Source of the DNA: an uncultured bacterium
GTDB lineage: Bacteria; Hinthialibacterota; Hinthialibacteria; Hinthialibacterales; Hinthialibacteraceae
NCBI GenBank assembly: GCA_964419335.1
Contig: CAYQOX010000023.1
Span: 2,946 to 66,945, forward strand
Reading direction: 5' to 3'
DNA: 64,000 bases
This document shows, piece after piece, positions 2,341-33,135 of this stretch (position 1 is its first letter; each line of letters opens with the position of its first letter). Under the pieces are notes generated by a model that worked only from the letters and a program-made list of their open reading frames with translations, had not been told where the DNA came from and made no database searches. Made by a program: the position numbers and the translations under genes.

Positions 2341-3822
2341 CTAAGCCCTTCCTTCTAGTTTGGCTTTACGGGTGGCTTTCCGGGCTTCTCGTTCGGCTTT
2401 GATGCGTTCCATTTCCTGACGTTCTTCTTCCTCACGCTTTTTCTTCGCTTCTTCCAATTCAATCAAACGAGCAAACAACCCTCCGCCCTTTAACGTTTGC
2501 TTAACCTCATCACTAAAGGGGATATTATACCAAAAGAATTCCCTGAATTTTCTTTCCATTTTGGGTATGCGGCGTGATTCATAGGCGACCCAAAGGAAAT
2601 AGTTCTCTTGGAAATAGCCTTTCAAATCCTTCCGCTGCTCCTTGGTAGAAAATAAGCCCAACCATTTACCGGTTAATCCCTCCGACATCCAGTAATGCAT
2701 CGCGTCTTCTTTGGCGTATTCCCAACGCAGGTCGGACATTCCCATCAAAAGGGTTTTCATACTGGAACGGGGAGGAAACGCACAAATACAAATACGGGGT
2801 TTAGAGCGTCCTTTTTTACCCGGACTCCAAGGCTCCCAACATCCTGCACGTTGACCATATCCGGGGCAAATGATAAATAAAGGTGGCAAATAAACCTCTT
2901 CCCCCTTATATTTTTTTTGGAAGATTTGGCAATCACATTTTTCCACGTGCTTCACGGCTTTTTTTAACCAATCCCGATTCACGATTGGATTATCACGTCC
3001 CGGCGAACAGTACTCCTGCATTAAAATGGTTACTTCGTTGGCACGCGGTCCCACACACATGCGCTGCATTTGAGGTACGCTGGTTAGCTCATAGCGCAAG
3101 GCTTCCTCGCCCCGTGCATCTAGATTGGGTTTCGCCCCATCAAGCGCCATTTCATCGATGGTGCTAAATTTCAAGCGTCCACGGGCGATTTCCTCAAACC
3201 ATTCATCGATGAAATAAATCCCGCTATCTTCGGGCTGGCTCTTGTCTCTATAAAGCACCTCCCAAACATCCATGCGGTCTTTCATCAACTTATCATCCAA
3301 CATGCCATAACGCATAAACAATCGCTTTTCCCAGGGAAGGCCTTCCCCGAGTAAACGGAAAGCCATTTTGTTTGTCATTTTCCAATGCAGACGGGTTAAC
3401 GATTTAAGGGTGGGACGACGCTCCTCTTGTTCGCAATTTTCGAGTTTCTCCAACAGGTACTTTACTTCATCGGCTTCTTCTTCTCCCTCCAAAACCGCGC
3501 TCAAGAATTTCCCCGCTTCAAAATTCATGGAAGGCTTTGGGGGGAGTTGACCTTCTGGCATCTCGATGGGCTTTTTTGGAGTTTGATCTTCTTTGGATGA
3601 AGCAGCTTCGCTAGCCTGATTCGATTCACCACCCGAGGCTTGAATTTTTAGTTTCTTTTTGTTTGTGTTATAGGTTTTCCGCTCTTGCACTAATGTTGTA
3701 AGTTTATTACGCAGCTCGGCAATTTCTTCATCCCGCTTCTTGAGCATGACATGGTACTTTTTCACTTTTTGCTCAAGATTTTTAATATATTGAGTGATTT
3801 GCTCTTTCTTATTCTCGGTCAC
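2341..3822 (-). CDS. hypothetical protein, coiled-coil N- and C-termini, Cys-rich central domain
   Basis: 493-aa uninterrupted ORF. Lys/Glu-rich heptad-like ends. Central CDC...CPGYGQRAGCWEPW...CICAF cysteine cluster. No family recognised. Confidence 0.6.
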   Translation of the reverse strand: MTENKKEQITQYIKNLEQKVKKYHVMLKKRDEEIAELRNKLTTLVQERKTYNTNKKKLKIQASGGESNQASEAASSKEDQTPKKPIEMPEGQLPPKPSMNFEAGKFLSAVLEGEEEADEVKYLLEKLENCEQEERRPTLKSLTRLHWKMTNKMAFRLLGEGLPWEKRLFMRYGMLDDKLMKDRMDVWEVLYRDKSQPEDSGIYFIDEWFEEIARGRLKFSTIDEMALDGAKPNLDARGEEALRYELTSVPQMQRMCVGPRANEVTILMQEYCSPGRDNPIVNRDWLKKAVKHVEKCDCQIFQKKYKGEEVYLPPLFIICPGYGQRAGCWEPWSPGKKGRSKPRICICAFPPRSSMKTLLMGMSDLRWEYAKEDAMHYWMSEGLTGKWLGLFSTKEQRKDLKGYFQENYFLWVAYESRRIPKMERKFREFFWYNIPFSDEVKQTLKGGGLFARLIELEEAKKKREEEERQEMERIKAEREARKATRKAKLEGRA

Positions 3823-4773: not shown

Positions 4774-5523
4774 CTAACGACTCGTTTTCTCCGCGCGCCA
4801 CAAGATCTCTTTCATTTCATGTACGGCACGTTCCATACCAACCATAACCGCATGAGATACTATACTATGCCCTGTATGAATCCAGTCAACCAAAGGGGAA
4901 GCGGCCAAAGCAAAAGTGTTACGATAATGCAAACCATGCCCCACATTACCTCGTAAACCTAAATTGTACGCATGTTGCAAAGCATTGATGACAATATCAA
5001 ACTCTTGCTTTTCCTCTTTCTTGTTCCGGGCGAGAGCATACGGTCCCGTATGAATTTCTACATACTGTGCGCCTAGTGAATGCGCGGCGGTAATTTCATC
5101 CTTCACTGCATCAATAAATATACTCACTACGATCCTAGCATCCAGCAATTTTTGAATATTTCCACGCAACTTGGATTCACGACCCACAACTTTTAACCCA
5201 CTCTCCGTCGTGCGTTCCTCACGTAACTCTGGAACCAAAGTACAAGCATGCGGCTGCACCTTCAGGGCTAAATCGACCATCTCATCCGTCAAGGCCATTT
5301 CCAGCGTCAGAGGAACTTGCAACACCTCTTTCAGCAACATCACATCACGATCTTGTATATGACGCCGATCTTCCCGGGGATGAACCGTAATTCCATCGGC
5401 GCCCCCCATCTGGGCCAACACCGCACCATCCACTGGATCCGGGTAGGAGGTATTCCTTGATTGCCTTAAGGTAGCAATATGATCAATATTTACAGAGAGT
5501 TTCACCATGAGCGGTTCTCCCAA
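4774..5523 (-). CDS. pdxJ: pyridoxine 5'-phosphate synthase
   Basis: 249 aa. LSVNIDHIATLR, GITVHPREDRRHI, VEIHTGPYA and GHGL motifs of PdxJ. Confidence 0.93.
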   Translation of the reverse strand: MGEPLMVKLSVNIDHIATLRQSRNTSYPDPVDGAVLAQMGGADGITVHPREDRRHIQDRDVMLLKEVLQVPLTLEMALTDEMVDLALKVQPHACTLVPELREERTTESGLKVVGRESKLRGNIQKLLDARIVVSIFIDAVKDEITAAHSLGAQYVEIHTGPYALARNKKEEKQEFDIVINALQHAYNLGLRGNVGHGLHYRNTFALAASPLVDWIHTGHSIVSHAVMVGMERAVHEMKEILWRAEKTSR

Positions 5524-22882: not shown

Positions 22883-23995
22883 ATGATGAAAATACCTCGC
22901 AGCAATCGTAGAAATGTTTTCGAATATTATGCGATTACCACAGATGTGAAATTGTCCTCTTTCCTTGCTACGATGCATAACATAAGTCAAAGCGGAGCTC
23001 TACTAAAAGTATTTGGCGAATTACTTATTGAAGAACACATTTATGCATGTCCAATCAAAGACGAAGAAACGGATGATCTCCCCACCCCTGATAAAATTGT
23101 CCACCATCCCCATGTTATAAGCGGAACCGTGGTACGCAAAGAAGGCATGGATAGTTATGGCATCCAATTTGAACATCCCACACACGAGGGAACCCCAGCC
23201 AGTTACCAAAAAACAACTTCCTCACGGTCAACAAGTTGGGAAAGTGAAGAAAATGGGTATACCATAACCTTACGCTTAAACAATACCCCGGATCTTTCTA
23301 CTCTTATCCGCTTTCGCGATACCCTAAGAGAGCAATCACATCATTTTCTTCACATGCTTCTAGATTTCTCTCACTCAGGAAAATTGCCTACGATGGGATA
23401 TGCGATTTTGGGTGAAATGCTGGAAGATCTTGCCGAAGCCAACTATCGAATAGCCTTGGTTAATGAAAACGCATTTGGGAATACGTTTCTTAAGAAATTT
23501 CAATACTCAAACCAAATCCACTTTTTTGATCAGGAAGAAGAAGCCCAAAAATACTTAAATCAACACGCCCTCAAAGCAGTCATCATTGATGATGAAGAAA
23601 CCACATTGCAATTGATCAACGCTTATCTCCAAAAACGAGGTTTCCAAGTTTTTTCTTTTAAAGATGCTGAACAAGCTCTTCCCCAATTAGAGAAACATCA
23701 ACCCGATATCATTCTCATGGACATTCATCTCCCCGGGATGAATGGTTTACAGGCTACAAACGAAATTCGCAACAATCACCAACTCCAACATATCCCCGTA
23801 ATCATACTCACAGGAGAATCACACCGGCAAATGGTTTCAGAAAGCATCCGTCTGCAGGTCAATGACTATTTACTTAAGCCGCTTGATTCGCACAACCTCA
23901 TGCATAAAATCATTTCGGTATTAAAACAAAACGAGAATTCCGAGAATTCCGAGAATCGAACCTTAGAAGACCGTCCATTTTTTAATTCCCATTGA
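22883..23995 (+). CDS. three-domain signalling protein: PilZ - STAS (anti-sigma-antagonist-like) - response-regulator receiver
   Basis: PilZ motifs RSNRR (RxxxR) and NISQSG (NxSxxG) 22 aa apart. Central ITLRLNN...LLDFSHSGKLPTMGYAILGEM...ALVNENA is STAS-like. C-terminal VIIDDEE...ILMDIHLPGMNG...DYLLKP is a canonical REC. Confidence 0.85.
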   Translation: MMKIPRSNRRNVFEYYAITTDVKLSSFLATMHNISQSGALLKVFGELLIEEHIYACPIKDEETDDLPTPDKIVHHPHVISGTVVRKEGMDSYGIQFEHPTHEGTPASYQKTTSSRSTSWESEENGYTITLRLNNTPDLSTLIRFRDTLREQSHHFLHMLLDFSHSGKLPTMGYAILGEMLEDLAEANYRIALVNENAFGNTFLKKFQYSNQIHFFDQEEEAQKYLNQHALKAVIIDDEETTLQLINAYLQKRGFQVFSFKDAEQALPQLEKHQPDIILMDIHLPGMNGLQATNEIRNNHQLQHIPVIILTGESHRQMVSESIRLQVNDYLLKPLDSHNLMHKIISVLKQNENSENSENRTLEDRPFFNSH

Positions 23996-24122
23996 TATAA
24001 GCCAGATAGAACCCGTATCCGAGATTGCCCTGCCTTCGCTAGGCATGTATCCTGTCCATAGACAATCATACAAAATGGATATACTTGTTTCCCAAATCGT
24101 CATTCATTGTTGGATGGGAATT

Positions 24123-27100
24123 ATGAACCAACCTTATAAAGCCATACAAAACATTGGAATCGATACCAAAGATTTCAAGCGTCGATTGAAATTTCTTGAT
24201 TTGCAGGAAGATGACCTACAACGCATTCGTCAACTTCGCATCCCTCTGCAAAAGATTATCCCTGAATTAATTGACACTTTCATCTACCATCTTCTCTCTT
24301 ATAAAGAGACCCAGGGATTTATTACCAACACGGAAACGTTGAATCGCATAAAAAAAAGCCTTCACTATTATTTCCTTACCCTGTTTTCGGGAGAATATGA
24401 TGATGAGTATCTTAACCACCGTATCAGCGTAGGATTAGCTCACGAGTTCATCGGTGTTAAACCCAGTCTCTACATTGCGGCCTACAATAAAATCATCTCA
24501 CTTGTTACCCAATATGTTATTACCCATTACCAAGAAAATCCCTTAGAGGCAAAGGCTGCGGTTCAATCACTCCAAAAAGTTTTTTCCCTCGATATGCAAT
24601 TGGCAATCGATACCTATAACCAAGCCAATAAGCATACTCTTTTGATCATGAAAGAGTTTGCTGAACATATCAATGAAAACATTCCCTCGGCATTGGTCGT
24701 ACTGAACGAAAACAAAAAGATTATCTCGAGCAATTCTGCTTTCCTTGACCTACTCTTTCAAATTCTTCCGAATCTTCCTAGCCACTACAACCAGTCCAAC
24801 TTAACCGGTGAAAACATCGATACCTTTTTTCCGGATCCAGTCATTTCATCCAACATTGAAAAGATGATCCAAAAAGGCCACACCCAAGATAAATTTTATA
24901 CCACCTTTCAGCAAGAAAATAAGCCCATCTATTTTTTGGTTTCCATGACCAAAATGATGCATGGACAACAATACAGCAATGAAATCCTCGTGGTAATGGA
25001 AAACATCACCGATTTACGGAAAGCCGAACAACAAATTAAAGAACAAAAAGAACTTCTGGAAAATACAATTAAATCCTTAACCCATCCCTTCTTTGTTATC
25101 GATGCGAAAGATCATTCGATCAAAATTGCCAATCCCGCCGCTGGAGGAAACAATCCAGAAGGTCTTCAACCTTGTTACTTGCTGTCCCACGATCACAATA
25201 TGCTCGGGCAAGACCCTGAGATGCTAAGTCCCATTGAACAAATTCGAAAAACAAAAACCCCCATAGAAACAGATCACATTCATTTTAATCAAGAAGGACG
25301 CCCCCGTTATTACGAAGTCCATGGATACCCGATTTTCGATGATCAGAACGAAGTGCAAATGATCATCGAATACTCGCTGGATATCACCGAACGCAAAATG
25401 GCAGAGGATGCACTCCGTGAAAGCGAAGCCAAAATGCGCTCTATCCTGCGCACTGCGGTGGACGGAATTCTGACCTTCAGTGATGATGGCATCATTGAAA
25501 CTGTAAACCCGGCGGCGGAATCGATGTTCGGCTACACCCAAGATGAAATTCTGGGAGAGAATATCGAACGTATTATGCCTTCGATTGCTTTTATGCGCCA
25601 TAAAGAATTATGCATGGTCGCCCGCGATCCTTATCAAAAATTTGGTTTCAGCACCGAGGGACTTGCTTGGCGTAAAGAGGGGACCTTCTTCTGTATGGAA
25701 ACCACCATCGGCGAAATGCCATTCGGTGACCATATTATATATACTGGAGTCATTCGAGATATCACGCAACATAAAAAATCGGAAGAAGAATTAATTAGGG
25801 CAAAAATCGCTTCCGAAGCCGCAAATAAAGCTAAGAGCGAATTTCTTGCAAATGTGAGTCATGAAATTCGCACCCCCTTAAATGGCATCATCGGTTTAAC
25901 CGATTTGCTCTTCCAAACTCAACTCAATACCGAACAGCATCATTACTTGGAACTGGTGAAGCAATCTTCTGAATCACTCCTGACCATCCTCAACGACATC
26001 TTAGATTTCTCCAAAATTGAAGCCGGCAAGTTGGAGTTCCACCCTATTGAGTTCAACTTCATCGATATGATCTTTGAAACCGCGAATGGGTTATCCATGC
26101 AAGCACACCAAAAAAACCTTGAACTCCATGTGATGCTGGATCCTCAACTCCCACTGTATGTCGTTGGCGACCCGGGACGGTTACGCCAAATCATGATCAA
26201 CCTCGTTGGGAATTCGATCAAATTTACTCAAGAAGGGGAAATCCTATTGCGCGTTGAACTTGATTCTCAAAGGAACTCCGAGGCAACTCTTTTGTTCTCA
26301 ATCTGCGATACAGGTATGGGTATTACACAAGAAAAACAAAATCTGATTTTCAACGCGTTTGAACAAGCGGATACATCAACCACTCGCCAATTCGGCGGCA
26401 CAGGATTAGGCTTGGCGATTTGCTCACAATTGGTGCAACTCATGGATGGGACAATTTGGGTAGAAAGTCCCTGGAAAGAGCGGCCGGCTTCTGCCTCCGG
26501 CGGCTTGGGGAGTAAATTCCAATTTAGCATACACTTGAAATCCCCTCATCGGAATACTCTGCAAACCTCCTATTCTGTACCTGAAAATTTGAAACCTATT
26601 TCGCTTCTCGTAATAACCCAAAGCCCGACCCTACGCATGCTATTACAATCTCAGTTTAACGAATGGGGAATCCATTCCGAGTTTGTCGATGGAAAAGAAG
26701 CGGCCCTAAGCCGGCTCAAACCCACTAATCAGGAGAAACAAGCCTTCTCCGCCGTGCTGATTGATCATCATATACCCAACCTGGATGGATTTACCCTCTT
26801 AGAAGCAATGAAATCTCATGAGAGATTCGAAGAGCTTCCAATGATTCTTTTGAGCAATAATTTAGAAAAACGAACAGCCGAGTTTCTTGGTCATTATGAT
26901 TATTGTTCGATTTTAATAAAACCGTTCAATCCCTATGAGCTCCTCGATCATATCCGTCATATGGGTCTTATCGATCAGCCTTTCGACACCCCACATTGGC
27001 CCCCTACGAGAGAGATTGAACCTGAGCCGGAAACACGTTATCACATTCTCATCGTCGAGGATAATGAAATTAATCTTACCTTAATTCGCCAAATCTTAGA

Positions 27101-27815
27101 GAAACGGGGTCATACTTATCGCCTTGCCCACAATGGAGAAGAAGCCCTCGAATGCATTCGTACAGAACCCTTTGATCTAGTCCTCATGGACATTCAAATG
27201 CCCATCATGGATGGAATTACAACAACCCAAAAAATCCGAGAGATAGAAAAAGAGACGAGAACTCACCTCCCAATCGTAGCCATGACCGCCTACGCCATGA
27301 AAGGAGATCAAGAACGTTGCCTAGAAGCAGGGATGGATGATTATATTCAAAAACCAATCCGAGCTGATCTCATACTAAAAACAATCCACAATTTACTCGA
27401 ACGAATTTCTCATGATGAAAACGAAGTGGCCCCCAGCACAACAAGAAAACAGATTTTGAACTCCAAGGAACTTTTGGATCGGGTGGAATATGATTACAAG
27501 TTATTGCAACAAATCAGTGACCTGTTTTTCGAACAATACCCACACCTTATGCAAGAGATCGAGAAAGGAATACTTAACAAGAAGTGCAAGGAGCTTCACT
27601 ACGCAGCTCATACCCTCAAAGGTTTATTGAGCAACTTTTCCGCAGAAGTCGCTTTCGAGATAGCGGCCGAATTAGATGAGTATGCAAAAAGAGAAGATTT
27701 CCCAAAAGCAGGAACTACAGTAGAAATTCTCAAGAAAGAAATACAAAACCTTATTCCTGAGCTTACAAAGATGTTGAAGACCTTAAAAGACAAAAAAGAT
27801 TGTAGTTCAGAATAA
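24123..27815 (+). CDS. hybrid sensor histidine kinase: globin-coupled sensor - PAS - PAS - HisKA/HATPase - pseudo-REC - REC - HPt
   Basis: N-terminal protoglobin-like domain (FIYHLL distal Tyr region; GLAHEFIGVKPSLYIAAY aligns with HemAT IHVKIGLEPKWY proximal His). H-box SHEIRTPLNG. N/G boxes. REC HILIVEDNE...LMDIQMPIMDG...KP. HPt AAHTLKG. ORF open from 24045. Confidence 0.9.
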   Translation: MNQPYKAIQNIGIDTKDFKRRLKFLDLQEDDLQRIRQLRIPLQKIIPELIDTFIYHLLSYKETQGFITNTETLNRIKKSLHYYFLTLFSGEYDDEYLNHRISVGLAHEFIGVKPSLYIAAYNKIISLVTQYVITHYQENPLEAKAAVQSLQKVFSLDMQLAIDTYNQANKHTLLIMKEFAEHINENIPSALVVLNENKKIISSNSAFLDLLFQILPNLPSHYNQSNLTGENIDTFFPDPVISSNIEKMIQKGHTQDKFYTTFQQENKPIYFLVSMTKMMHGQQYSNEILVVMENITDLRKAEQQIKEQKELLENTIKSLTHPFFVIDAKDHSIKIANPAAGGNNPEGLQPCYLLSHDHNMLGQDPEMLSPIEQIRKTKTPIETDHIHFNQEGRPRYYEVHGYPIFDDQNEVQMIIEYSLDITERKMAEDALRESEAKMRSILRTAVDGILTFSDDGIIETVNPAAESMFGYTQDEILGENIERIMPSIAFMRHKELCMVARDPYQKFGFSTEGLAWRKEGTFFCMETTIGEMPFGDHIIYTGVIRDITQHKKSEEELIRAKIASEAANKAKSEFLANVSHEIRTPLNGIIGLTDLLFQTQLNTEQHHYLELVKQSSESLLTILNDILDFSKIEAGKLEFHPIEFNFIDMIFETANGLSMQAHQKNLELHVMLDPQLPLYVVGDPGRLRQIMINLVGNSIKFTQEGEILLRVELDSQRNSEATLLFSICDTGMGITQEKQNLIFNAFEQADTSTTRQFGGTGLGLAICSQLVQLMDGTIWVESPWKERPASASGGLGSKFQFSIHLKSPHRNTLQTSYSVPENLKPISLLVITQSPTLRMLLQSQFNEWGIHSEFVDGKEAALSRLKPTNQEKQAFSAVLIDHHIPNLDGFTLLEAMKSHERFEELPMILLSNNLEKRTAEFLGHYDYCSILIKPFNPYELLDHIRHMGLIDQPFDTPHWPPTREIEPEPETRYHILIVEDNEINLTLIRQILEKRGHTYRLAHNGEEALECIRTEPFDLVLMDIQMPIMDGITTTQKIREIEKETRTHLPIVAMTAYAMKGDQERCLEAGMDDYIQKPIRADLILKTIHNLLERISHDENEVAPSTTRKQILNSKELLDRVEYDYKLLQQISDLFFEQYPHLMQEIEKGILNKKCKELHYAAHTLKGLLSNFSAEVAFEIAAELDEYAKREDFPKAGTTVEILKKEIQNLIPELTKMLKTLKDKKDCSSE

Positions 27816-27860: not shown

Positions 27861-30443
27861 CTAGCCGAGAAGCTGCAAGAATGTCTGGCTCTGGAAGTTG
27901 GCTTGGGCTAAAACAGAAGTTCCCGCCTGTAACAAGACTTGATTGAGTGTAAACTTCGAGGTTTCTTCAGCAATGTCAGCATCCCGAATCCGAGATTCAG
28001 ACGCCGTTAAGTTTTCCGAAGCCACACTCAAACTCGATACAGTAGATTCTAACCGGTTCGTAGCCGCACCGAGAATCGAACGAGTACGGTTCACCTGATC
28101 CAAGGCTTCATCCACGATTTTTATCGCCTCATTCGCGCCTTCTAAGGACGTCACATCAATATCCTGAACCGTTCTACCACTATTTCGGCCAAAACCGAGG
28201 TTATCCGCTTTTAAATCACCTATAGAAAACTGGATGTTTTGATCACTGAACGCCCCAATTTGAAAGTTAAGTCCAGTATTTACAGTTGAAATTACGGTTG
28301 TGATGCCTGTATCTTCTGCGGTACCACTGGAAGTTACATTAACAAACGAATCAAAGTCCACTGTAACAAAATTCGCTGTCTTACTACTCGTACTGGGCGT
28401 AAAGAACACCACATCCTGCTCACCGGGTGAAAAGGTGACCCCAGCACCTCCGTTTAATGTACCGACATATTCGTTGGGTACATTCTCGAATTTGTCATTA
28501 CCACTCGTAAATCCACTACCTACCCGTAAAGTAACCTGAGGCGTAGGCACCCCTTCGATCGTGGATTCCTGTCCTTTAAGGGTGATCACGTCACCTGCTT
28601 CGGCTCGAACTTCTTCCCCTCCATCGATTTGGAAAGTGGCCTGTTCGGCATATCCTTCCTGAGTTAGTTCTGCATCATCTTGTAAGGTGAAATATTCCGT
28701 TGGAGTTGAGGAATCACTATTTTGGAAGGTGAGCGTGAAATTCATTTTTGAATCAGAACGCCCTACATCATCAATAAGTTGGAGTGCCCCTCCGGGTGTA
28801 TACGTGAAGATCGCATCATCGAAGCGTGTTTGGTCACCATTCGTAGCCGTACCTGACTCATAATTCCGCGTACGGAAATTCAGTTCCTGAATCAAACCGG
28901 AAATCGTGGCAAACTTAAAGTCGTTAAAACTTGTATCTACCTCCTGCAACTCAGTGTCATCATCAGGATTGACGTAAGTGAAGCGTCCTTCAAAGGTACT
29001 CCCGTCCGCGTTCGTTCCTGTCAGTACAATCATATCATCATCGCGAAGGGTCTGTCCGCCTGTGTAATTACTTCCCACAAAAGAGCCGTTCAACACGACC
29101 GTATTAGAAGCATTTGTCGCACCTAAAGTGGTGGAACGATCCAACCGTGTTCCATTACCATCCAGAAACGCGATCGTACTGGTAACCTTCCGTTGTTGGG
29201 CCTCTTGCACATCTTTCACGGTGATGTTGAATTGTCCTTCTTGAAATGTTGAACCGGTGATCGCTGTTACTGCATTCCCTACTTGGCCACCTCCGGAAAG
29301 CGCCGAATCCGCTCCGATCGCTCCGGAGCGTGTTACACCATTGGCGTTGGTTACGAGATCGCCACTCCGGAACAAAGATAGATTGATGTTGGATTGATTG
29401 ATATGATTCCCTTCGCCGATCATTAACAAACGCCCCCGGTTATCTCCCGTTTCACTCGCCAGGGTAACGGTAGTACGATAAGCCGTGGGTACACTGCCTG
29501 TGGTATTCACTCCAAACAGGTTCTTTTCGGCTTCATCGATCGCCCGATTAACCGCCGCCACAACATCGGGGGGATTGGTTGAGGAGGCACCGGCTGATGT
29601 CCCAATGGTCGTGCTATCACCGATGGTTAATGATCCGGTAAACTTGGTCACTCCATCCGCCAATACGCCTTCAAAGACAAGCACGTCATCTCCTGCTCCC
29701 GAAACCGATACTCCATTAAAGAAGAAGTCATCACCAGAAACATCGGACCCGGTAGTTAGAGCATTTCCGCCAAACGAACGCTGATCTGTAAAAGCGGCTA
29801 AAGAAACAGCTACATCGGTTTGATTACTGATCCCTGTATTGACGATCTGCTGTCCCCCGGCTTGATCACCAGCCACTACTTGAGCATGCCCAATTTGGTT
29901 GAGTCGGATATTTAAAAAAGCCGTCCCGCTGTCCAGCGAGCTAGCCACAGGAGAGGCATCAATATCAAAACCGTAATCAGGTTGACCTTCTTTAAACTCC
30001 GATTTAATGGAGAAATCTCCATTCAGTAAATGGTTACTGCCAAACAAAGTGGTATTGGCGATTCGAGTGATTTCGTCAATACTCTGAAACACTTCGTCCT
30101 GAATGGCAGAACGCGCTTTGAAATCATTGGTCCCGGTGTTGGCCGCTTGCAGTGATAATTGACGGATACGGTTTAAACGGTTGGTGGTTTCTTCCAACGA
30201 TCCTTCGGCAACGTTAATCAAGTTAATACCATCTTGAGCGTTCGTAACCGCTTGATTCAATCCCTGCGTCTGTGAGCGTAAGCGGTTTGCCACACTAAAT
30301 CCCGCTGCGTCATCCGCCGCTCGGTTGATACGCAAACCAGAGGAGAGGCGTTCGATGGCTTTCTCTAAATTGCCACCGATTTGGCTCATGTTTCTCTGGG
30401 TTGTGATTGCAGATATATTTGTATTAATACGAGTGATTCCCAT
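27861..30443 (-). CDS. fliC: flagellin with very large (~600 aa) central hypervariable region
   Basis: 860 aa. N-terminal D0/D1 (INTNISAI...LSSGLRINRAADDAAG...AQDGINLINVAEG). C-terminal D1/D0 (LGAATNRLES...ESRIRDADIAEE...LLQAGTSVLAQAN). AAGGAGGA SD 5 nt before the ATG. Confidence 0.94.
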   Translation of the reverse strand: MGITRINTNISAITTQRNMSQIGGNLEKAIERLSSGLRINRAADDAAGFSVANRLRSQTQGLNQAVTNAQDGINLINVAEGSLEETTNRLNRIRQLSLQAANTGTNDFKARSAIQDEVFQSIDEITRIANTTLFGSNHLLNGDFSIKSEFKEGQPDYGFDIDASPVASSLDSGTAFLNIRLNQIGHAQVVAGDQAGGQQIVNTGISNQTDVAVSLAAFTDQRSFGGNALTTGSDVSGDDFFFNGVSVSGAGDDVLVFEGVLADGVTKFTGSLTIGDSTTIGTSAGASSTNPPDVVAAVNRAIDEAEKNLFGVNTTGSVPTAYRTTVTLASETGDNRGRLLMIGEGNHINQSNINLSLFRSGDLVTNANGVTRSGAIGADSALSGGGQVGNAVTAITGSTFQEGQFNITVKDVQEAQQRKVTSTIAFLDGNGTRLDRSTTLGATNASNTVVLNGSFVGSNYTGGQTLRDDDMIVLTGTNADGSTFEGRFTYVNPDDDTELQEVDTSFNDFKFATISGLIQELNFRTRNYESGTATNGDQTRFDDAIFTYTPGGALQLIDDVGRSDSKMNFTLTFQNSDSSTPTEYFTLQDDAELTQEGYAEQATFQIDGGEEVRAEAGDVITLKGQESTIEGVPTPQVTLRVGSGFTSGNDKFENVPNEYVGTLNGGAGVTFSPGEQDVVFFTPSTSSKTANFVTVDFDSFVNVTSSGTAEDTGITTVISTVNTGLNFQIGAFSDQNIQFSIGDLKADNLGFGRNSGRTVQDIDVTSLEGANEAIKIVDEALDQVNRTRSILGAATNRLESTVSSLSVASENLTASESRIRDADIAEETSKFTLNQVLLQAGTSVLAQANFQSQTFLQLLG

Positions 30444-30448
30444 GATTT

Positions 30449-30491
30449 TCCTCCTTGAGGGGATTCACGCATAGCATCCCATGCATGCGTG
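30449..30491 (-). promoter_or_regulatory. flagellin 5' leader: hairpin presenting GGA in its apical loop plus GGA-containing SD (CsrA-type dual site architecture)
   Basis: mRNA sense is CACGCAU-GCAU-GGG-AUGC-U-AUGCGUG (30491-30466), then 9 nt, then AAGGAGGA (30456-30449). This resembles the two CsrA sites of B. subtilis hag. Confidence 0.35.
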
Positions 30492-30666
30492 TTCAGTGCA
30501 CATCTTTCCTCTCATCTCCCGAATGGGAATCGCTCAACCTTTTACCCCCACGACCGCATGCGGAGGCAAACTGTTGAATCGATTCTTCGAGAGTATCGAT
30601 TCTTATTAGCCAATGTTTTTGGAAGGAAAAATCAGGGAGGAAAATCCCCCTCTCTTACTTACTCCG

Positions 30667-30710
30667 TTGCAAGGTTTCCGAGGCCTTTTTCATGACGGGT
30701 GAAGTGGTTT
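30667..30710. repeat. conserved core element, copy 1 (44 nt)
   Basis: TTGCAAGGTTTCCGAGGCCTTTTTCATGACGGGTGAAGTGGTTT, identical to copy 2 at 30894-30937. Followed by T5. Confidence 0.9.
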
Positions 30711-30782
30711 TTCCCTTCCAGTCATTCGATAGAGATCTATCACCTCCTTTATAAAAATTTCATAAAGAATCGTACATTAAAC

Positions 30783-30810
30783 TTAAGTTTTTCAAGCGAT
30801 TTGCCGAAGA
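30783..30810 (+). promoter_or_regulatory. sigma-28 (FliA)-type promoter C
   Basis: TTAAGTTT-N12-GCCGAAGA versus consensus TAAAGTTT-N11-GCCGATAA (13/16). Confidence 0.45.
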
Positions 30811-30816
30811 TTAGGG

Positions 30817-30950
30817 ACAGATATGATATGACAGAGAAAACCCTGCACATTCTCTTGTCATCCTGGGTTAGATCGCTTTTCACCCCTCATAAATTGCAAG
30901 GTTTCCGAGGCCTTTTTCATGACGGGTGAAGTGGTTTAACCTTTTTTTTT
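30817..30950 (+). ncRNA. candidate sigma-28-dependent small RNA (module 2), about 134 nt, ends inferred
   Basis: Starts ~7 nt after promoter C. 10-bp SL1 at 30829-30860, conserved UCCUGGGUUA, long hairpin UUCACCC/GGGUGAA containing the core repeat, T9 run at 30942-30950. Confidence 0.4.
30861..30950. repeat. conserved element, copy 2 (extended ~90 nt)
   Basis: TCCTGGGTTAGATCGCTTTTCACCCCTC...core...T9. Aligns along its length with 31255-31345. Confidence 0.9.
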
Positions 30951-31030
30951 ATCCGCCCACGAGACTCAAAGCAAACGCCTAATTCATTTTTTATTTACCC
31001 AAAAAAAAATTTTGGCGTGTTCGTATATTA

Positions 31031-31057
31031 TTTTCGGCAGATTAAAGAAAACCTTAA
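31031..31057 (-). promoter_or_regulatory. sigma-28 (FliA)-type promoter D, oriented toward the flagellin gene
   Basis: Minus strand reads TTAAGGTT-N11-GCCGAAAA (13/16). Paralogous to promoter A (shared ATCTGCCGA). Confidence 0.45.
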
Positions 31058-31127
31058 ATAAAATTTTTCTTGACTTTTTCTGTTGGAAGAAAAGTTAATA
31101 TAAAATCAATCTTCGAGAGATAAACAA

Positions 31128-31160
31128 TAAAAAACCGTATCCCCTCGCACGGGATACGGT
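31128..31160 (-). terminator. intrinsic terminator (minus strand)
   Basis: Minus strand reads CCGTATCCC-gtgcgag-GGGATACGG followed by TTTTTTATT. Perfect 9-bp GC-rich stem. Confidence 0.7.
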
Positions 31161-31178
31161 GTAATTTGATCTTTCAAC

Positions 31179-31205
31179 TCAAGTTTGGCTCAAAATTGCC
31201 GATAA
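31179..31205 (+). promoter_or_regulatory. sigma-28 (FliA)-type promoter B
   Basis: TCAAGTTT-N11-GCCGATAA (15/16 to consensus). Confidence 0.55.
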
Positions 31206-31211
31206 ATAAGA

Positions 31212-31345
31212 ACATAGAACAAGGGTAAAACAAACCCTGTACGTTCTTTTGATTTCCTGGGTTAAATTGCTTTTCACCCCTCTCAATTGCAAGGTTTCCG
31301 AGGCCTTTTCACAAGACGGGTGAAGTGGTTTGACCCTCTTTTTTT
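31212..31345 (+). ncRNA. candidate sigma-28-dependent small RNA (module 3), about 134 nt, ends inferred
   Basis: Starts ~7 nt after promoter B. SL1 at 31216-31247, conserved UCCUGGGUUA, long hairpin with the core repeat, GGGUGAA-GUGG-UUGACCC hairpin plus T7 run at 31339-31345. Confidence 0.42.
31255..31345. repeat. conserved element, copy 3 (extended ~90 nt)
   Basis: TCCTGGGTTAAATTGCTTTTCACCCCTC...core (31287-31331, a few substitutions/indels versus copies 1/2)...T7. Confidence 0.9.
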
Positions 31346-31432
31346 AACCCATTCAACCAAGAACCTCTCAGAGTTCTCACCCTTCGCACCTGAAGGATTC
31401 AAGAATGAGTATTTCTCCTTCTTCGTCTTTTA

Positions 31433-31459
31433 CTATCGGCAGATAAACCCGAAACTTTA
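31433..31459 (-). promoter_or_regulatory. sigma-28 (FliA)-type promoter A
   Basis: Minus strand reads TAAAGTTT-N11-GCCGATAG (15/16, perfect -35 element). Confidence 0.6.
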
Positions 31460-31543
31460 GAAGAATTTGTATTTTTTTCCTTAACCTTTTAATCTGCCTG
31501 ATTTAATTAAATTTATAAATGACCTATTTCCTCAAAAAAAATC

Positions 31544-32395
31544 TCATCCTAAAAATTCAATAAATTTGCGAGTAATTTCCCCCTCTTTTACCTTACAAAT
31601 AAAATATCCCTTTTCCTCACTTCCATCATGATTTCCTCGACTATAAGAGAGGCAACGGTTGGTGGTGAGTGGAATCTCATTCCACCGCTTCAATGTAAAT
31701 CCATGAAAATGCCCGCTATAAATCGCTTTCACATTACAATCCACCAATAAGTTTAAAACTTCATCGGCATTTTTAGGCCGCATCGGTGTCTCTTCACCCA
31801 TGGGAAAATGAGTAAAAACAATCATAGGCTTTTTAGAATCATTCTCATCAATTGTCTTTCTTAACCATTTCAGGCTATCTTCTTGAATTTGAGTATCTTT
31901 ATAACGGGGACCATCACATGAATCCAATCCCAATAGAGTCCACCCCTTCACGTGCTTTACATAATTCCGAGAGTTGGGAAAAATCTCTTCGTACACCCCG
32001 CACGACTCTCCATCAAAGTCATGGTTCCCCGGGACCACGTAAACAGGACATGGCATAGCCTCCATAATTTCACGAAATGGTTTTAGTTCATGTTCTTTTC
32101 CATCGGTAGCGAGATCCCCAGCGACAAGGCAAAAATCCAGTTTCTCGTGGCGTGATTTGATCCATTTCACCGCCTTTGTTAAATATTCCCCACAACGTTC
32201 ATCGCGATAATGGGTATCATTGATAATGACATACTGTAGATCATCCCCTTTTTCGTCAAAAGCCTGCGCTGCGATTGCACCCGGCCATAATCCGGCTGCG
32301 AGAACCCCATGCAATCCATTGCGCAAAAATTCACGACGTGACTTGCCAGCAGAGAGTATGCGCTTCTTGTATTCCTTCATTAATAAACCTTTCAA
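31544..32395 (-). CDS. calcineurin-like metallophosphoesterase with twin-arginine signal
   Basis: 283 aa. SRREFLRNGL...AQA TAT signal. DTHY, GDLATDG, GNHD and GHFH metallophosphoesterase motifs. Confidence 0.85.
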   Translation of the reverse strand: MKGLLMKEYKKRILSAGKSRREFLRNGLHGVLAAGLWPGAIAAQAFDEKGDDLQYVIINDTHYRDERCGEYLTKAVKWIKSRHEKLDFCLVAGDLATDGKEHELKPFREIMEAMPCPVYVVPGNHDFDGESCGVYEEIFPNSRNYVKHVKGWTLLGLDSCDGPRYKDTQIQEDSLKWLRKTIDENDSKKPMIVFTHFPMGEETPMRPKNADEVLNLLVDCNVKAIYSGHFHGFTLKRWNEIPLTTNRCLSYSRGNHDGSEEKGYFICKVKEGEITRKFIEFLG

Positions 32396-32469: not shown

Positions 32470-33135
32470 TCAACGGTTGATTCCACCCCCGCTTCGCATA
32501 AAAATATCGCCGATGCTATTCAATCCATTGGAAGCATCATAAGGAATCCCCCGATTTCCACTCTCTGATCCGGCATAACCATCCGGTCCTAAACCGACCA
32601 AAGCATATTCGCCTCGCTGCATAGGTCGAATTCCAATGACTTCACAAAAGGGGAGTTCAAGAGCCGCGATATTCATATTATTGTTGTTTGATCCTGTACC
32701 TGGAATATTAGGATCAAAATCCGCATACGTGTAGGTATCGGTGGGACTACCAAATCCTACATCGGTGATATCCATATGTTTTCCTATAAAAGGATCAATA
32801 GGAACTGAACTTAAATAAGGAACTGGGCTGGTTAGCACCGCGAGATAATCGGTTTTTTTGCGGATACCTTCGGGAAAATTTCCCACATCGTTAAACACAT
32901 TTTTTAAGATATCCCGCCCTTCTTGAGTATCATCATCCCATCCATCAAGGGGGAGATAACCTGTATCCATGCGCAATTGTTCCACTGCCTGTAAGATCGT
33001 GCGCATATCGGATTGACATCGCGCCAGTTTTGCCCGTACTTGAGCATTTAAAAAGTTGGGTACTGCGATGGCCGCCAAAATCCCAATAATCGCTACTACG
33101 ATTAATAATTCGATCAAGGTAAAACCTTTTCTCAT
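32470..33135 (-). CDS. orphan prepilin-type (type II secretion/type IV pilin-like) protein
   Basis: MRKGFTLIELLIVVAIIGILAAIAVPNF, a class III signal peptide with G/F cleavage site and Glu+5. 221 aa. Confidence 0.85.
   Translation of the reverse strand: MRKGFTLIELLIVVAIIGILAAIAVPNFLNAQVRAKLARCQSDMRTILQAVEQLRMDTGYLPLDGWDDDTQEGRDILKNVFNDVGNFPEGIRKKTDYLAVLTSPVPYLSSVPIDPFIGKHMDITDVGFGSPTDTYTYADFDPNIPGTGSNNNNMNIAALELPFCEVIGIRPMQRGEYALVGLGPDGYAGSESGNRGIPYDASNGLNSIGDIFMRSGGGINR

Follow-up and report, generated by a model that had tools for sequence, protein, structure and literature searches.

Three copies of a repeat lie upstream of a flagellin gene in a 64-kb stretch of DNA from an uncultured bacterium of the candidate phylum Hinthialibacterota (64,000 nt of contig CAYQOX010000023.1, hereafter the window). 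They occupy a 1.1-kb intergenic stretch between two minus-strand genes, which encode a metallophosphoesterase and the flagellin. Two of the copies are predicted to be complete small RNA (sRNA) genes on the + strand, antisense to the long leader of the flagellin mRNA, and the remaining one is truncated. This flagellin-leader sRNA family is a previously undescribed candidate, whereas the kind of regulation that it would represent is already known. The features of the locus are given below in order of position, with promoter scores out of 16 and bit scores from the covariance model (CM) described further on.

27861..30443, minus strand: gene for an 860-aa flagellin, the presumed target (Pfam Flagellin_N 2.3e-36, Flagellin_C 2.9e-24)
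30444..30649, minus strand: conserved proximal flagellin leader, with landmarks at matching distances from the ATG in 7–8 of 8 genomes
30650..30717, + strand: truncated copy 1, hairpin tip and 3′ arm only (CM match 40.3 bits)
30783..30810, + strand: sigma-28-type promoter of copy 2, TTAAGTTT-N12-GCCGAAGA (13/16; predicted start ~30818)
30818..30952, + strand: predicted sRNA copy 2, 135 nt (CM match 83.3 bits at 30860–30952)
31031..31057, minus strand: flagellin-sense sigma-28-type promoter, TTAAGGTT-N11-GCCGAAAA (13–14/16)
31124..31160, minus strand: strong intrinsic terminator, 10-bp stem and T-run (from a terminator scan)
31179..31205, + strand: sigma-28-type promoter of copy 3, TCAAGTTT-N11-GCCGATAA (15/16; predicted start ~31213)
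31213..31346, + strand: predicted sRNA copy 3, 134 nt (CM match 86.6 bits at 31254–31346)
31433..31459, minus strand: second flagellin-sense sigma-28-type promoter, TAAAGTTT-N11-GCCGATAG (15/16; 0 expected by chance)
31544–32395, minus strand: metallophosphoesterase gene
32470–33135, minus strand: next gene beyond the metallophosphoesterase

Repeat copies and predicted small RNA genes

The 23-mer TTGCAAGGTTTCCGAGGCCTTTT is found on the + strand at 30667, 30894 and 31287, the places where the original prediction, made from the letters of the window, had put the repeat core. No fourth site exists in the window, and 100 dinucleotide shuffles gave no match. The three repeat copies are real, and none is expected by chance. 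A repeat search returned a three-copy family of 51 nt with ungapped identities of 100, 94 and 67%; copies 1 and 2 are identical over the first 44 nt, and copies 2 and 3 share a 113-nt repeat (30838–30950 and 31232–31344, 75% identity). A mobile or repetitive extragenic palindromic (REP)-like element was ruled out, as the copies are confined to one locus in a CM search of the window and the collected loci. No Rfam 15 family matched the whole window at gathering thresholds. At E-values up to 10, the segment 30300–31700 gave unrelated sub-threshold matches only; the best, on the terminator at 31160, was to the trpB motif, at 23.4 bits where 59 would be needed.

Copies 2 and 3 form complete + strand units, each consisting of a promoter of the form T[C/T]AAGTTT-N11/12-GCCGA[T/A][A/G]A, a variable 5′ hairpin, a hairpin of ~78 nt and a U-tract. 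Promoters were sought by a sigma-28-type motif scan that takes as its yardstick the consensus TAAAGTTT-N11-GCCGATAA from general knowledge. Sites scoring at least 14/16 number just three in the window, namely the copy-3 promoter and the flagellin-sense sites at 31459 and 31057, and all of them lie at the flagellin leader region. The sigma-28-type promoter expected of a FliA-dependent sRNA is predicted for both units, at 13/16 and 15/16. With the RNA start placed 8 nt past the −10 element, the units would produce RNAs of 135 and 134 nt from their own promoters and terminators, which agrees with the non-coding + strand RNAs of ~134 nt proposed originally.

The predicted sRNA copy 2 contains a 5′ hairpin (~30828–30861), a long hairpin (30865–30942) with the tip GGTTTCCGAGGCC at 30900–30912, and a run of nine T (30942–30950); the 135-nt RNA folds at −42.9 kcal/mol, and so does the stretch 30820–30952 (z = −4.95). 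The predicted sRNA copy 3 has a weaker 5′ hairpin, a long hairpin at 31259–31336 with the invariant tip at 31293–31305, and a run of seven T (31339–31345). Its 134-nt RNA folds at −41.0 kcal/mol, and the slightly longer stretch 31208–31348 at −41.9 kcal/mol (z = −2.85). As the original prediction described, the sequence has the 5′ hairpins, a UUCACCC/GGGUGAA pairing, and U-runs of 9 and 7. The segment UCCUGGGUUA, which had been taken for conserved and unpaired, is actually paired; GGGUUAGAUCGCU pairs with AGUGGUUUAACCU to form the outer stem of the long hairpin, 13–14 bp in length. The invariant tip GGUUUCCGAGGCC is a 5-bp stem that includes two U·G pairs and is capped by a CCG triloop. Because the long hairpin ends directly at the U-run, it is itself the predicted intrinsic terminator, and not a competitor of the terminator as had been thought.

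Copy 1 repeats the sequence of copy 2 over 30667–30710, with the invariant tip at 30673–30685. It has neither a promoter nor a proper terminator, and alone it folds no more stably than shuffled sequence (z = +0.47). An inverted repeat pairs 31488–31507 with 31027–31046 (80%); it repeats part of the flagellin promoter region (TTTAATCTGCC...) on the opposite strand with the CGA core lost, and is probably a relic of the duplication that made the copy-3 unit.

On its other side, the flagellin gene adjoins a + strand gene (24045–27815) for a hybrid histidine kinase of 1256 aa, in which a protoglobin sensor domain is combined with PAS domains, an Hpt domain and two receiver domains. Before it lies a gene for a PilZ/STAS/receiver protein at 22883–23995. 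A gas- or redox-sensing input may be encoded here.

Conservation in relatives and strand of the structure

Loci of relatives, designated L008, L009 and so on, were gathered through flagellin homologues, and one metagenome pattern scan added a single contig, L011. Exact look-ups of the window's flagellin and of its IleRS retrieved no record. The nearest flagellins belong to uncultured bacteria labelled Candidatus Hinthialibacter or ‘Omnitrophota’; Hinthialibacterota (OLB16), which used to be counted among the Omnitrophota, is predicted to have flagella. The original prediction had named additional copies and covariation in relatives as its check, and both were found in seven other lineages (L008/L009, L011, L013, L014, L015–L017, L018 and L019). 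Altogether the 8 genomes hold eleven full and eight truncated copies, all of them upstream of and antisense to an orthologous orphan flagellin gene. In each of the seven relatives one truncated copy is proximal to the flagellin, and one or more full copies are distal. The 13-mer at the hairpin tip is invariant in 19/19 copies, and the flagellins are just 62–75% identical. In 10 of the 11 full copies the hairpin is preceded, at a constant distance, by a promoter of the form T[C/T]AAG[T/A]TT-N11-G[C/T]CGATAA; a hairpin with a U-tract is predicted for all 11, and the predicted RNAs measure 110–135 nt. On the opposite strand, all 8 genomes have a flagellin-sense promoter of sigma-28 type on the distal side of the full copy. 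The positions of these distal promoters in the relatives are L008 3903, L011 745, L013 3366, L014 3322, L015 1394, L018 1739 and L019 1855.

Coding potential was rejected on either strand of the element, since no open reading frame (ORF) is conserved and frame and length vary. In copy 2 the longest ORF has 33 aa, in copy 3 it has 24 aa and lies in another frame, and in L008 it has 15 aa; in the L011 full copy f1, one strand or both have no ORF with a start codon. A conserved ORF with a ribosome-binding site, as for a small protein or a type I toxin-antitoxin system, was not found in these copies. The spacer lengths between copies differ by non-multiples of three.

The element was absent from three other flagellin loci. 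The CM found no further match in the window or in the flaG/fliD/fliS-type flagellin loci L010 and L012, and none in L020, where four flagellin genes are clustered with flaG-fliD-fliS; L020 and L013 are from one assembly. It follows that a single orphan flagellin paralog has the element. In L020 (1–16800) the main filament cluster comprises four tandem genes for flagellins of 855–874 aa together with genes for a methyltransferase, flaG, fliD and fliS; the L013/L020 lineage thus has at least five giant flagellin paralogs, and the sRNA element at the orphan one only. A sigma-28-type motif also precedes fliD in L010 and L020. A scan of genome contigs with the pattern AGGTTTCCGAGGCC-N6-16-GGGTGAA returned 7 chance matches in unrelated taxa; the pattern was too narrow, as the relatives carry GGGTC or GGGGA.

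Some further observations were made at these loci. The element-free flagellin leaders of L010 (~4830–4890) and L012 (~3495–3545) contain two GCGGGTGCGA(A)G motifs in antisense orientation, which faintly resemble GACGGGTGAAG of the element's 3′ arm, and have a distal sigma-28-type promoter ~400–450 nt upstream. In L008 (3250–3605), just upstream of the flagellin locus, an ORF of 85 aa that is rich in Ser, Asn and Gly has a 16/16 match to the sigma-28 consensus before it. The 85-aa ORF and ORFs of 65–73 aa beside the relatives' flagellins were tried as CsrA or FliW, and no Pfam match was obtained.

The CM was built from the 11 full copies. Full copies score 72–94 bits and the 8 truncated copies 24–40 bits, and the reverse strand at those sites scores 15–24 bits. 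Consensus pairs are standard in 90.9% of cells on the + strand and in only 73.0% on the reverse strand, because 54 of the 285 cells (19%) are G·U, including the two invariant U·G pairs of the tip stem. The G–U argument for the + strand put forward earlier is strongly upheld by these figures. Sliding the partners by one column reduces the paired cells from 90.9% to 58%. Double (compensatory) changes occur at 6 pairs, in 11 cells, and the observed covariation score was reached by 0/500 shuffles. The minimum free energy of the long hairpin, calculated for single sequences, ranges from −23.7 to −33.4 kcal/mol on the + strand and from −7.7 to −26.6 kcal/mol on the reverse strand, the + strand fold being the more stable in 10/11 full copies. 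As read from the aligned sequences, these comparisons show that the conserved structure belongs to the + strand.

The flagellin leader and the proposed pairing

The flagellin-sense promoter at 31057 reaches 14/16 in the N10 register TAAGGTTT (31056–31031). Transcription from a predicted start at ~31023 would give the flagellin mRNA a leader of ~580 nt that is antisense through sRNA copy 2 and copy 1, as the original prediction had anticipated. A transcript from the second promoter at 31459 would run antisense through sRNA copy 3 and, at ~290 nt, would be ended by the 31160–31134 terminator ahead of the flagellin promoter. No conserved promoter proximal to the flagellin was noticed on reading the sequences.

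The landmarks of this leader recur across the 8 genomes at matching distances from the ATG. Counted in nt from there, the full-copy tip lies at −452 to −507, a GGAGGUG box at −299 to −353 (7/8 genomes), the tip of the truncated copy between −236 and −271, a CCUCC-like tract between −174 and −231, and a GCAYNGGAUGC hairpin at −39 to −46 (7/8 genomes). In the window, the box is TCACCTCCTT at 30741–30750 (sense AAGGAGGUGA, perfectly Shine–Dalgarno (SD)-like), between the truncated copy and the sRNA promoter. The CCUCC-rich, anti-SD-like tract of the proximal leader lies at 30632–30646. It forms one half of a 15-nt inverted repeat, I3 (93%; 30632–30646 and 30444–30458), in which the segment GAUUUUCCUCCCUGA is complementary to the flagellin SD region (−20.6 kcal/mol); relatives have CCUCC-like tracts at the matching position. 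No start codon suitably spaced after the GGAGGUG box was seen by eye in the window, L008, L011 or L013, and the box may be a decoy partner of the CCUCC tract. A leader hairpin with the sequence-conserved loop CAUGCGGUCGU(G) is located at ~30535–30570 and is found 109–124 nt 5′ of the ATG in 8/8 genomes. Closest to the gene, the GCAUGGGAUGC hairpin (30474–30484, ~40 nt before the ATG), which has the GCAYNGGAUGC form in the 7 genomes, is followed by the SD CAAGGAGGA at 30450–30458. The hairpin and SD together look like the two-site CsrA arrangement of flagellin leaders.

The truncated copy is positioned 236–271 nt upstream of the flagellin ATG in 8/8 genomes; in the window it lies ~240 nt upstream of the start codon, between the SD-like GGAGGUGA box and the CCUCC anti-SD-like tract. 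As part of the flagellin-sense RNA, copy 1 complements sRNA copy 2 perfectly over 44 nt. At the cis site the pairing is necessarily perfect. When the variable spacer and 3′ arm of the truncated copy are compared with those of the full copies, the best match is found within the same genome in all eight cases. In L011 the truncated copy is closest to the promoter-bearing copy f1 and not to the promoterless copy in the cis position. Such co-evolution of truncated and full copies is what selection for sRNA–leader pairing would predict, and the own-genome matches suggest that the complementarity has been kept by selection, with gene conversion as the alternative (see below).

From these observations, a new family of sRNAs of ~110–135 nt, antisense in the long leader of an orphan flagellin gene and probable regulators of that flagellin, is given a probability of roughly 55%. 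In the mechanism proposed, sigma-28 (FliA)-type promoters would drive the sRNAs from inside the flagellin's own sigma-28-driven leader of ~580 nt, on the opposite strand. Each sRNA would comprise a variable 5′ domain and one long, near-continuous hairpin doubling as intrinsic terminator, and would pair with the leader at two places, the region of its own gene in cis and the truncated copy. Pairing would change leader folding, or make double-stranded RNA for RNase III, or both, and would thereby tune the translation or stability of one flagellin paralog in either direction. Since one sigma factor would drive both target and regulator, a feed-forward limiter or threshold is proposed. In the window, the extra unit made up of the 31459 promoter, antisense copy 3 and the 31160 terminator could supply a complementary RNA that titrates the sRNAs. 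Antisense-driven attenuation at a terminator-like hairpin at 30651–30634 was considered and rejected, its hairpin and U-run having seemed unconserved in relatives when read by eye.

A more elaborate form of this mechanism is conceivable but doubtful. It would join three RNAs in a single sigma-28 circuit, namely the flagellin mRNA with its two leader sites, the sRNAs, and an anti-sRNA from 31459 to 31134 with full complementarity to an sRNA, so that titration would set a sharp threshold or a delay for the orphan flagellin; the 13-nt tip would bind a dedicated factor. A separately terminated anti-sRNA is proposed for this genome and for L011, where the equivalent of the 31459 promoter (1577–1551) matches the consensus at 16/16.

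Several points weigh against regulation by antisense sRNAs. The promoters, the RNA ends and the sRNAs themselves are predictions. Only 8 lineages are available, the structural support consists largely of wobble pairs or one-sided changes, and the CM alignment was fitted to its own model. Gene conversion could equally yield the concerted evolution of truncated and full copies. When leaders were folded with the sRNA target masked, the accessibility of the SD shifted inconsistently (0.14 to 0.17 in the window; down in 3/8 genomes). Pairing of the sRNAs with the translation initiation region or the proximal leader displayed no own-versus-foreign specificity. A co-variation of the anti-SD tract with the SD, convincing by eye, was likewise dismissed, because own and foreign duplexes were alike (−15.7 and −15.0 kcal/mol). 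In the canonical in-leader full copy of L011 (551–634), which has many compensatory changes (GGAUUGAAUGGCUC / GAGCCGUUAAAUCC) and a displaced U-tract, neither a sigma-28-type promoter nor a 5′ domain can be recognised; two promoter-bearing copies lie further upstream. Finally, the 13-nt tip is invariant, though purely complementary partners could co-vary; this hints at a further partner, either a protein or other targets.

Could the flagellin-sense leader be functional alone, with the repeats serving as cis hairpins of the mRNA (protein sites or A/B/A′ pairings) and the + strand not meaningfully expressed? Every copy does lie inside or just upstream of the leader set by the conserved sense promoters, and a 13-mer invariant in full and truncated copies would suit a protein site. 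Moreover, the sequence complementary to the 5′ arm of the full copy could pair with either of two near-identical segments, which would also explain the co-evolution. This explanation is nevertheless unlikely. Mismatches affect 27% of consensus pairs on the sense strand, compared with 9% on the + strand, and the invariant tip stem cannot form in the sense RNA, as its two U·G pairs become C·A. The + strand sigma-28-type promoter at fixed distance and the U-tract of every full copy would also go unexplained.

A 13-mer that stays invariant while the arms around it co-vary is what a seed with many targets usually looks like. The sRNAs might accordingly act mainly in trans through the tip, with the leader copy and the 31459-to-31134 transcript as sponges or decoys; the extra promoter-bearing copies outside the leader in the window and L011 would fit. 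What makes this improbable is that the tip complement has no other match in the window or in the 22-kb filament cluster L020, where the sole near-match to the tip with at most 2 mismatches (L020 19817) is on the same strand as the genes and thus offers no pairing target. The tip is also buried in a 5–7-bp stem with a 3-nt loop, and would make a poor seed.

Flagellin leaders are classic CsrA targets (PMC4894983), and the sense-strand tip, AAGG-CCUCGGAAA-CCUU, places GGA in a 9-nt loop. The copies could in principle be CsrA-binding hairpins through which the leader and the 31459 transcript titrate the protein. This is very unlikely, however, given that the one CUCGGA per copy misfits the motif (C/A)A(A/T)GGA or ANGGA, that a far better pair of sites lies by the start codon (GCAYNGGAUGC and the SD AAGGAGGA), and that the + strand-specific structure and signals would be left without explanation. 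On the + strand itself, GGA is lacking from the three sRNAs examined (w2, w3 and L008f), so these RNAs do not have the multiple ANGGA motifs in hairpin loops that mark the CsrB/RsmY type.

Still less probable is that the copies are functionless, neutral leftovers of a tandem duplication homogenised by gene conversion. They are in tandem, and those within a genome are alike. Yet layout, 13-mer, promoter, U-tract and helix have been kept while the flagellins diverged to 62–75% identity, the 5′ domains and flanks were free to diverge, and there are compensatory changes.

The terminator/antiterminator half of the original prediction fares worst: a + strand riboregulator whose long hairpin (as antiterminator) excludes, and is excluded by, a short 3′ hairpin with the U-run (as terminator) has some basis in the GGGU...ACCC self-complementarity of the 3′ arm in copies 2 and 3 and several relatives, but it can practically be discarded, as the 3′-only hairpin is not conserved (its pairs are lost in L013, L015 and L019), its stability of −2.4 to −9.0 kcal/mol is not comparable with the −23.7 to −33.4 kcal/mol of the long hairpin, and no + strand gene follows either terminator, the next genes (31544–32395 and 32470–33135) being on the minus strand. 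Of the two-hairpin RNA first proposed, the small-RNA part is thus retained.

If expressed, the sRNAs would be the first riboregulators described for the candidate phylum Hinthialibacterota (formerly OLB16, once in Omnitrophota). They would also clearly exemplify the antisense control of a flagellin by an RNA that lies within its target's long leader and shares the flagellar sigma factor with it. A link with a single orphan flagellin of 860 aa, rather than with the main cluster, points to paralog-specific control of filament composition. With the CM and the eight-genome alignment the family can be searched for, and the predicted ends allow the sRNA to be tested directly.

Relation to known regulators

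In E. coli, the sigma-28-dependent sRNAs known as UhpU, MotR, FliX and FlgO modulate the level of flagellin and the number of flagella (Melamed et al. 2023, PMC10578931), and MotR and FliX pair within coding sequences (PMC10578931). The window RNAs are similar in that late flagellar genes and riboregulators would share the flagellar sigma factor, here by prediction. They differ in being stand-alone genes antisense inside the target leader, with tens of nt of complementarity, whereas the E. coli sRNAs are derived from untranslated regions and act in trans; the two groups have no sequence or Rfam similarity. In C. jejuni, FlmR (CJnc170, FliA-dependent) and FlmE (CJnc230) fine-tune filament assembly (PMC11187230), and CjNC1 and CjNC4 are sigma-28-dependent paralogues (PMC4626219). 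The direct targets described for FlmE are trans-encoded mRNAs, for a flagella-interaction regulator and FlgM, and FlmR is known there only through the effect of its overexpression on flagellar length and motility (PMC11187230). FliA-type sRNAs that sometimes occur in paralogous copies are common to C. jejuni and, by prediction, the window. Unlike the window RNAs, FlmR and FlmE are not described as antisense in a flagellin leader; they have no sequence relationship to the window RNAs and belong to another phylum.

Plasmid countertranscripts are short structured antisense RNAs with a promoter in the target leader, a terminator hairpin of their own and a complementary leader hairpin. Those in rep mRNA leaders include pMV158 RNAII (PMC4485353) and the pT181-type antisense attenuators (PMC3753616). 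The predicted window RNAs have in common with rep countertranscripts that a structured antisense RNA would arise from a promoter within the leader of the controlled gene and end at its own terminator hairpin. Unlike them, the window element is chromosomal and flagellar, has a sigma-28-type promoter, and is accompanied by a second, truncated target copy in the same leader. An attenuator-type terminator past the target site is present in the window (the 30651–30634 hairpin), seemingly without conservation in the relatives read by eye.

Control in the flagellin leader is also exerted by the CsrA-FliW-flagellin partner switch, which acts on the flagellin 5′ untranslated regions of B. subtilis hag and C. 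jejuni flaA, the flaA leader being 45 nt (PMC4894983). The window locus resembles these systems in the site of control and in the GGA-loop hairpin ~40 nt before the ATG with the AAGGAGGA SD. Those leaders are short and the regulator is a protein, whereas the window element lies 240–500 nt upstream and carries the signatures of a + strand RNA.

In the flagellar ‘excludon’ of Listeria monocytogenes (Anti0677/mogR), antisense transcription crosses a flagellar locus from a convergent promoter, as is predicted for the window locus. The RNA of the excludon is a long antisense transcript that also serves as mRNA, in contrast to the terminated, structured sRNA of ~130 nt predicted here. By analogy, the closest counterparts of the window RNAs would be the E. 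coli sigma-28 sRNAs and C. jejuni FlmR/FlmE in function, and the plasmid rep-leader countertranscripts in architecture.

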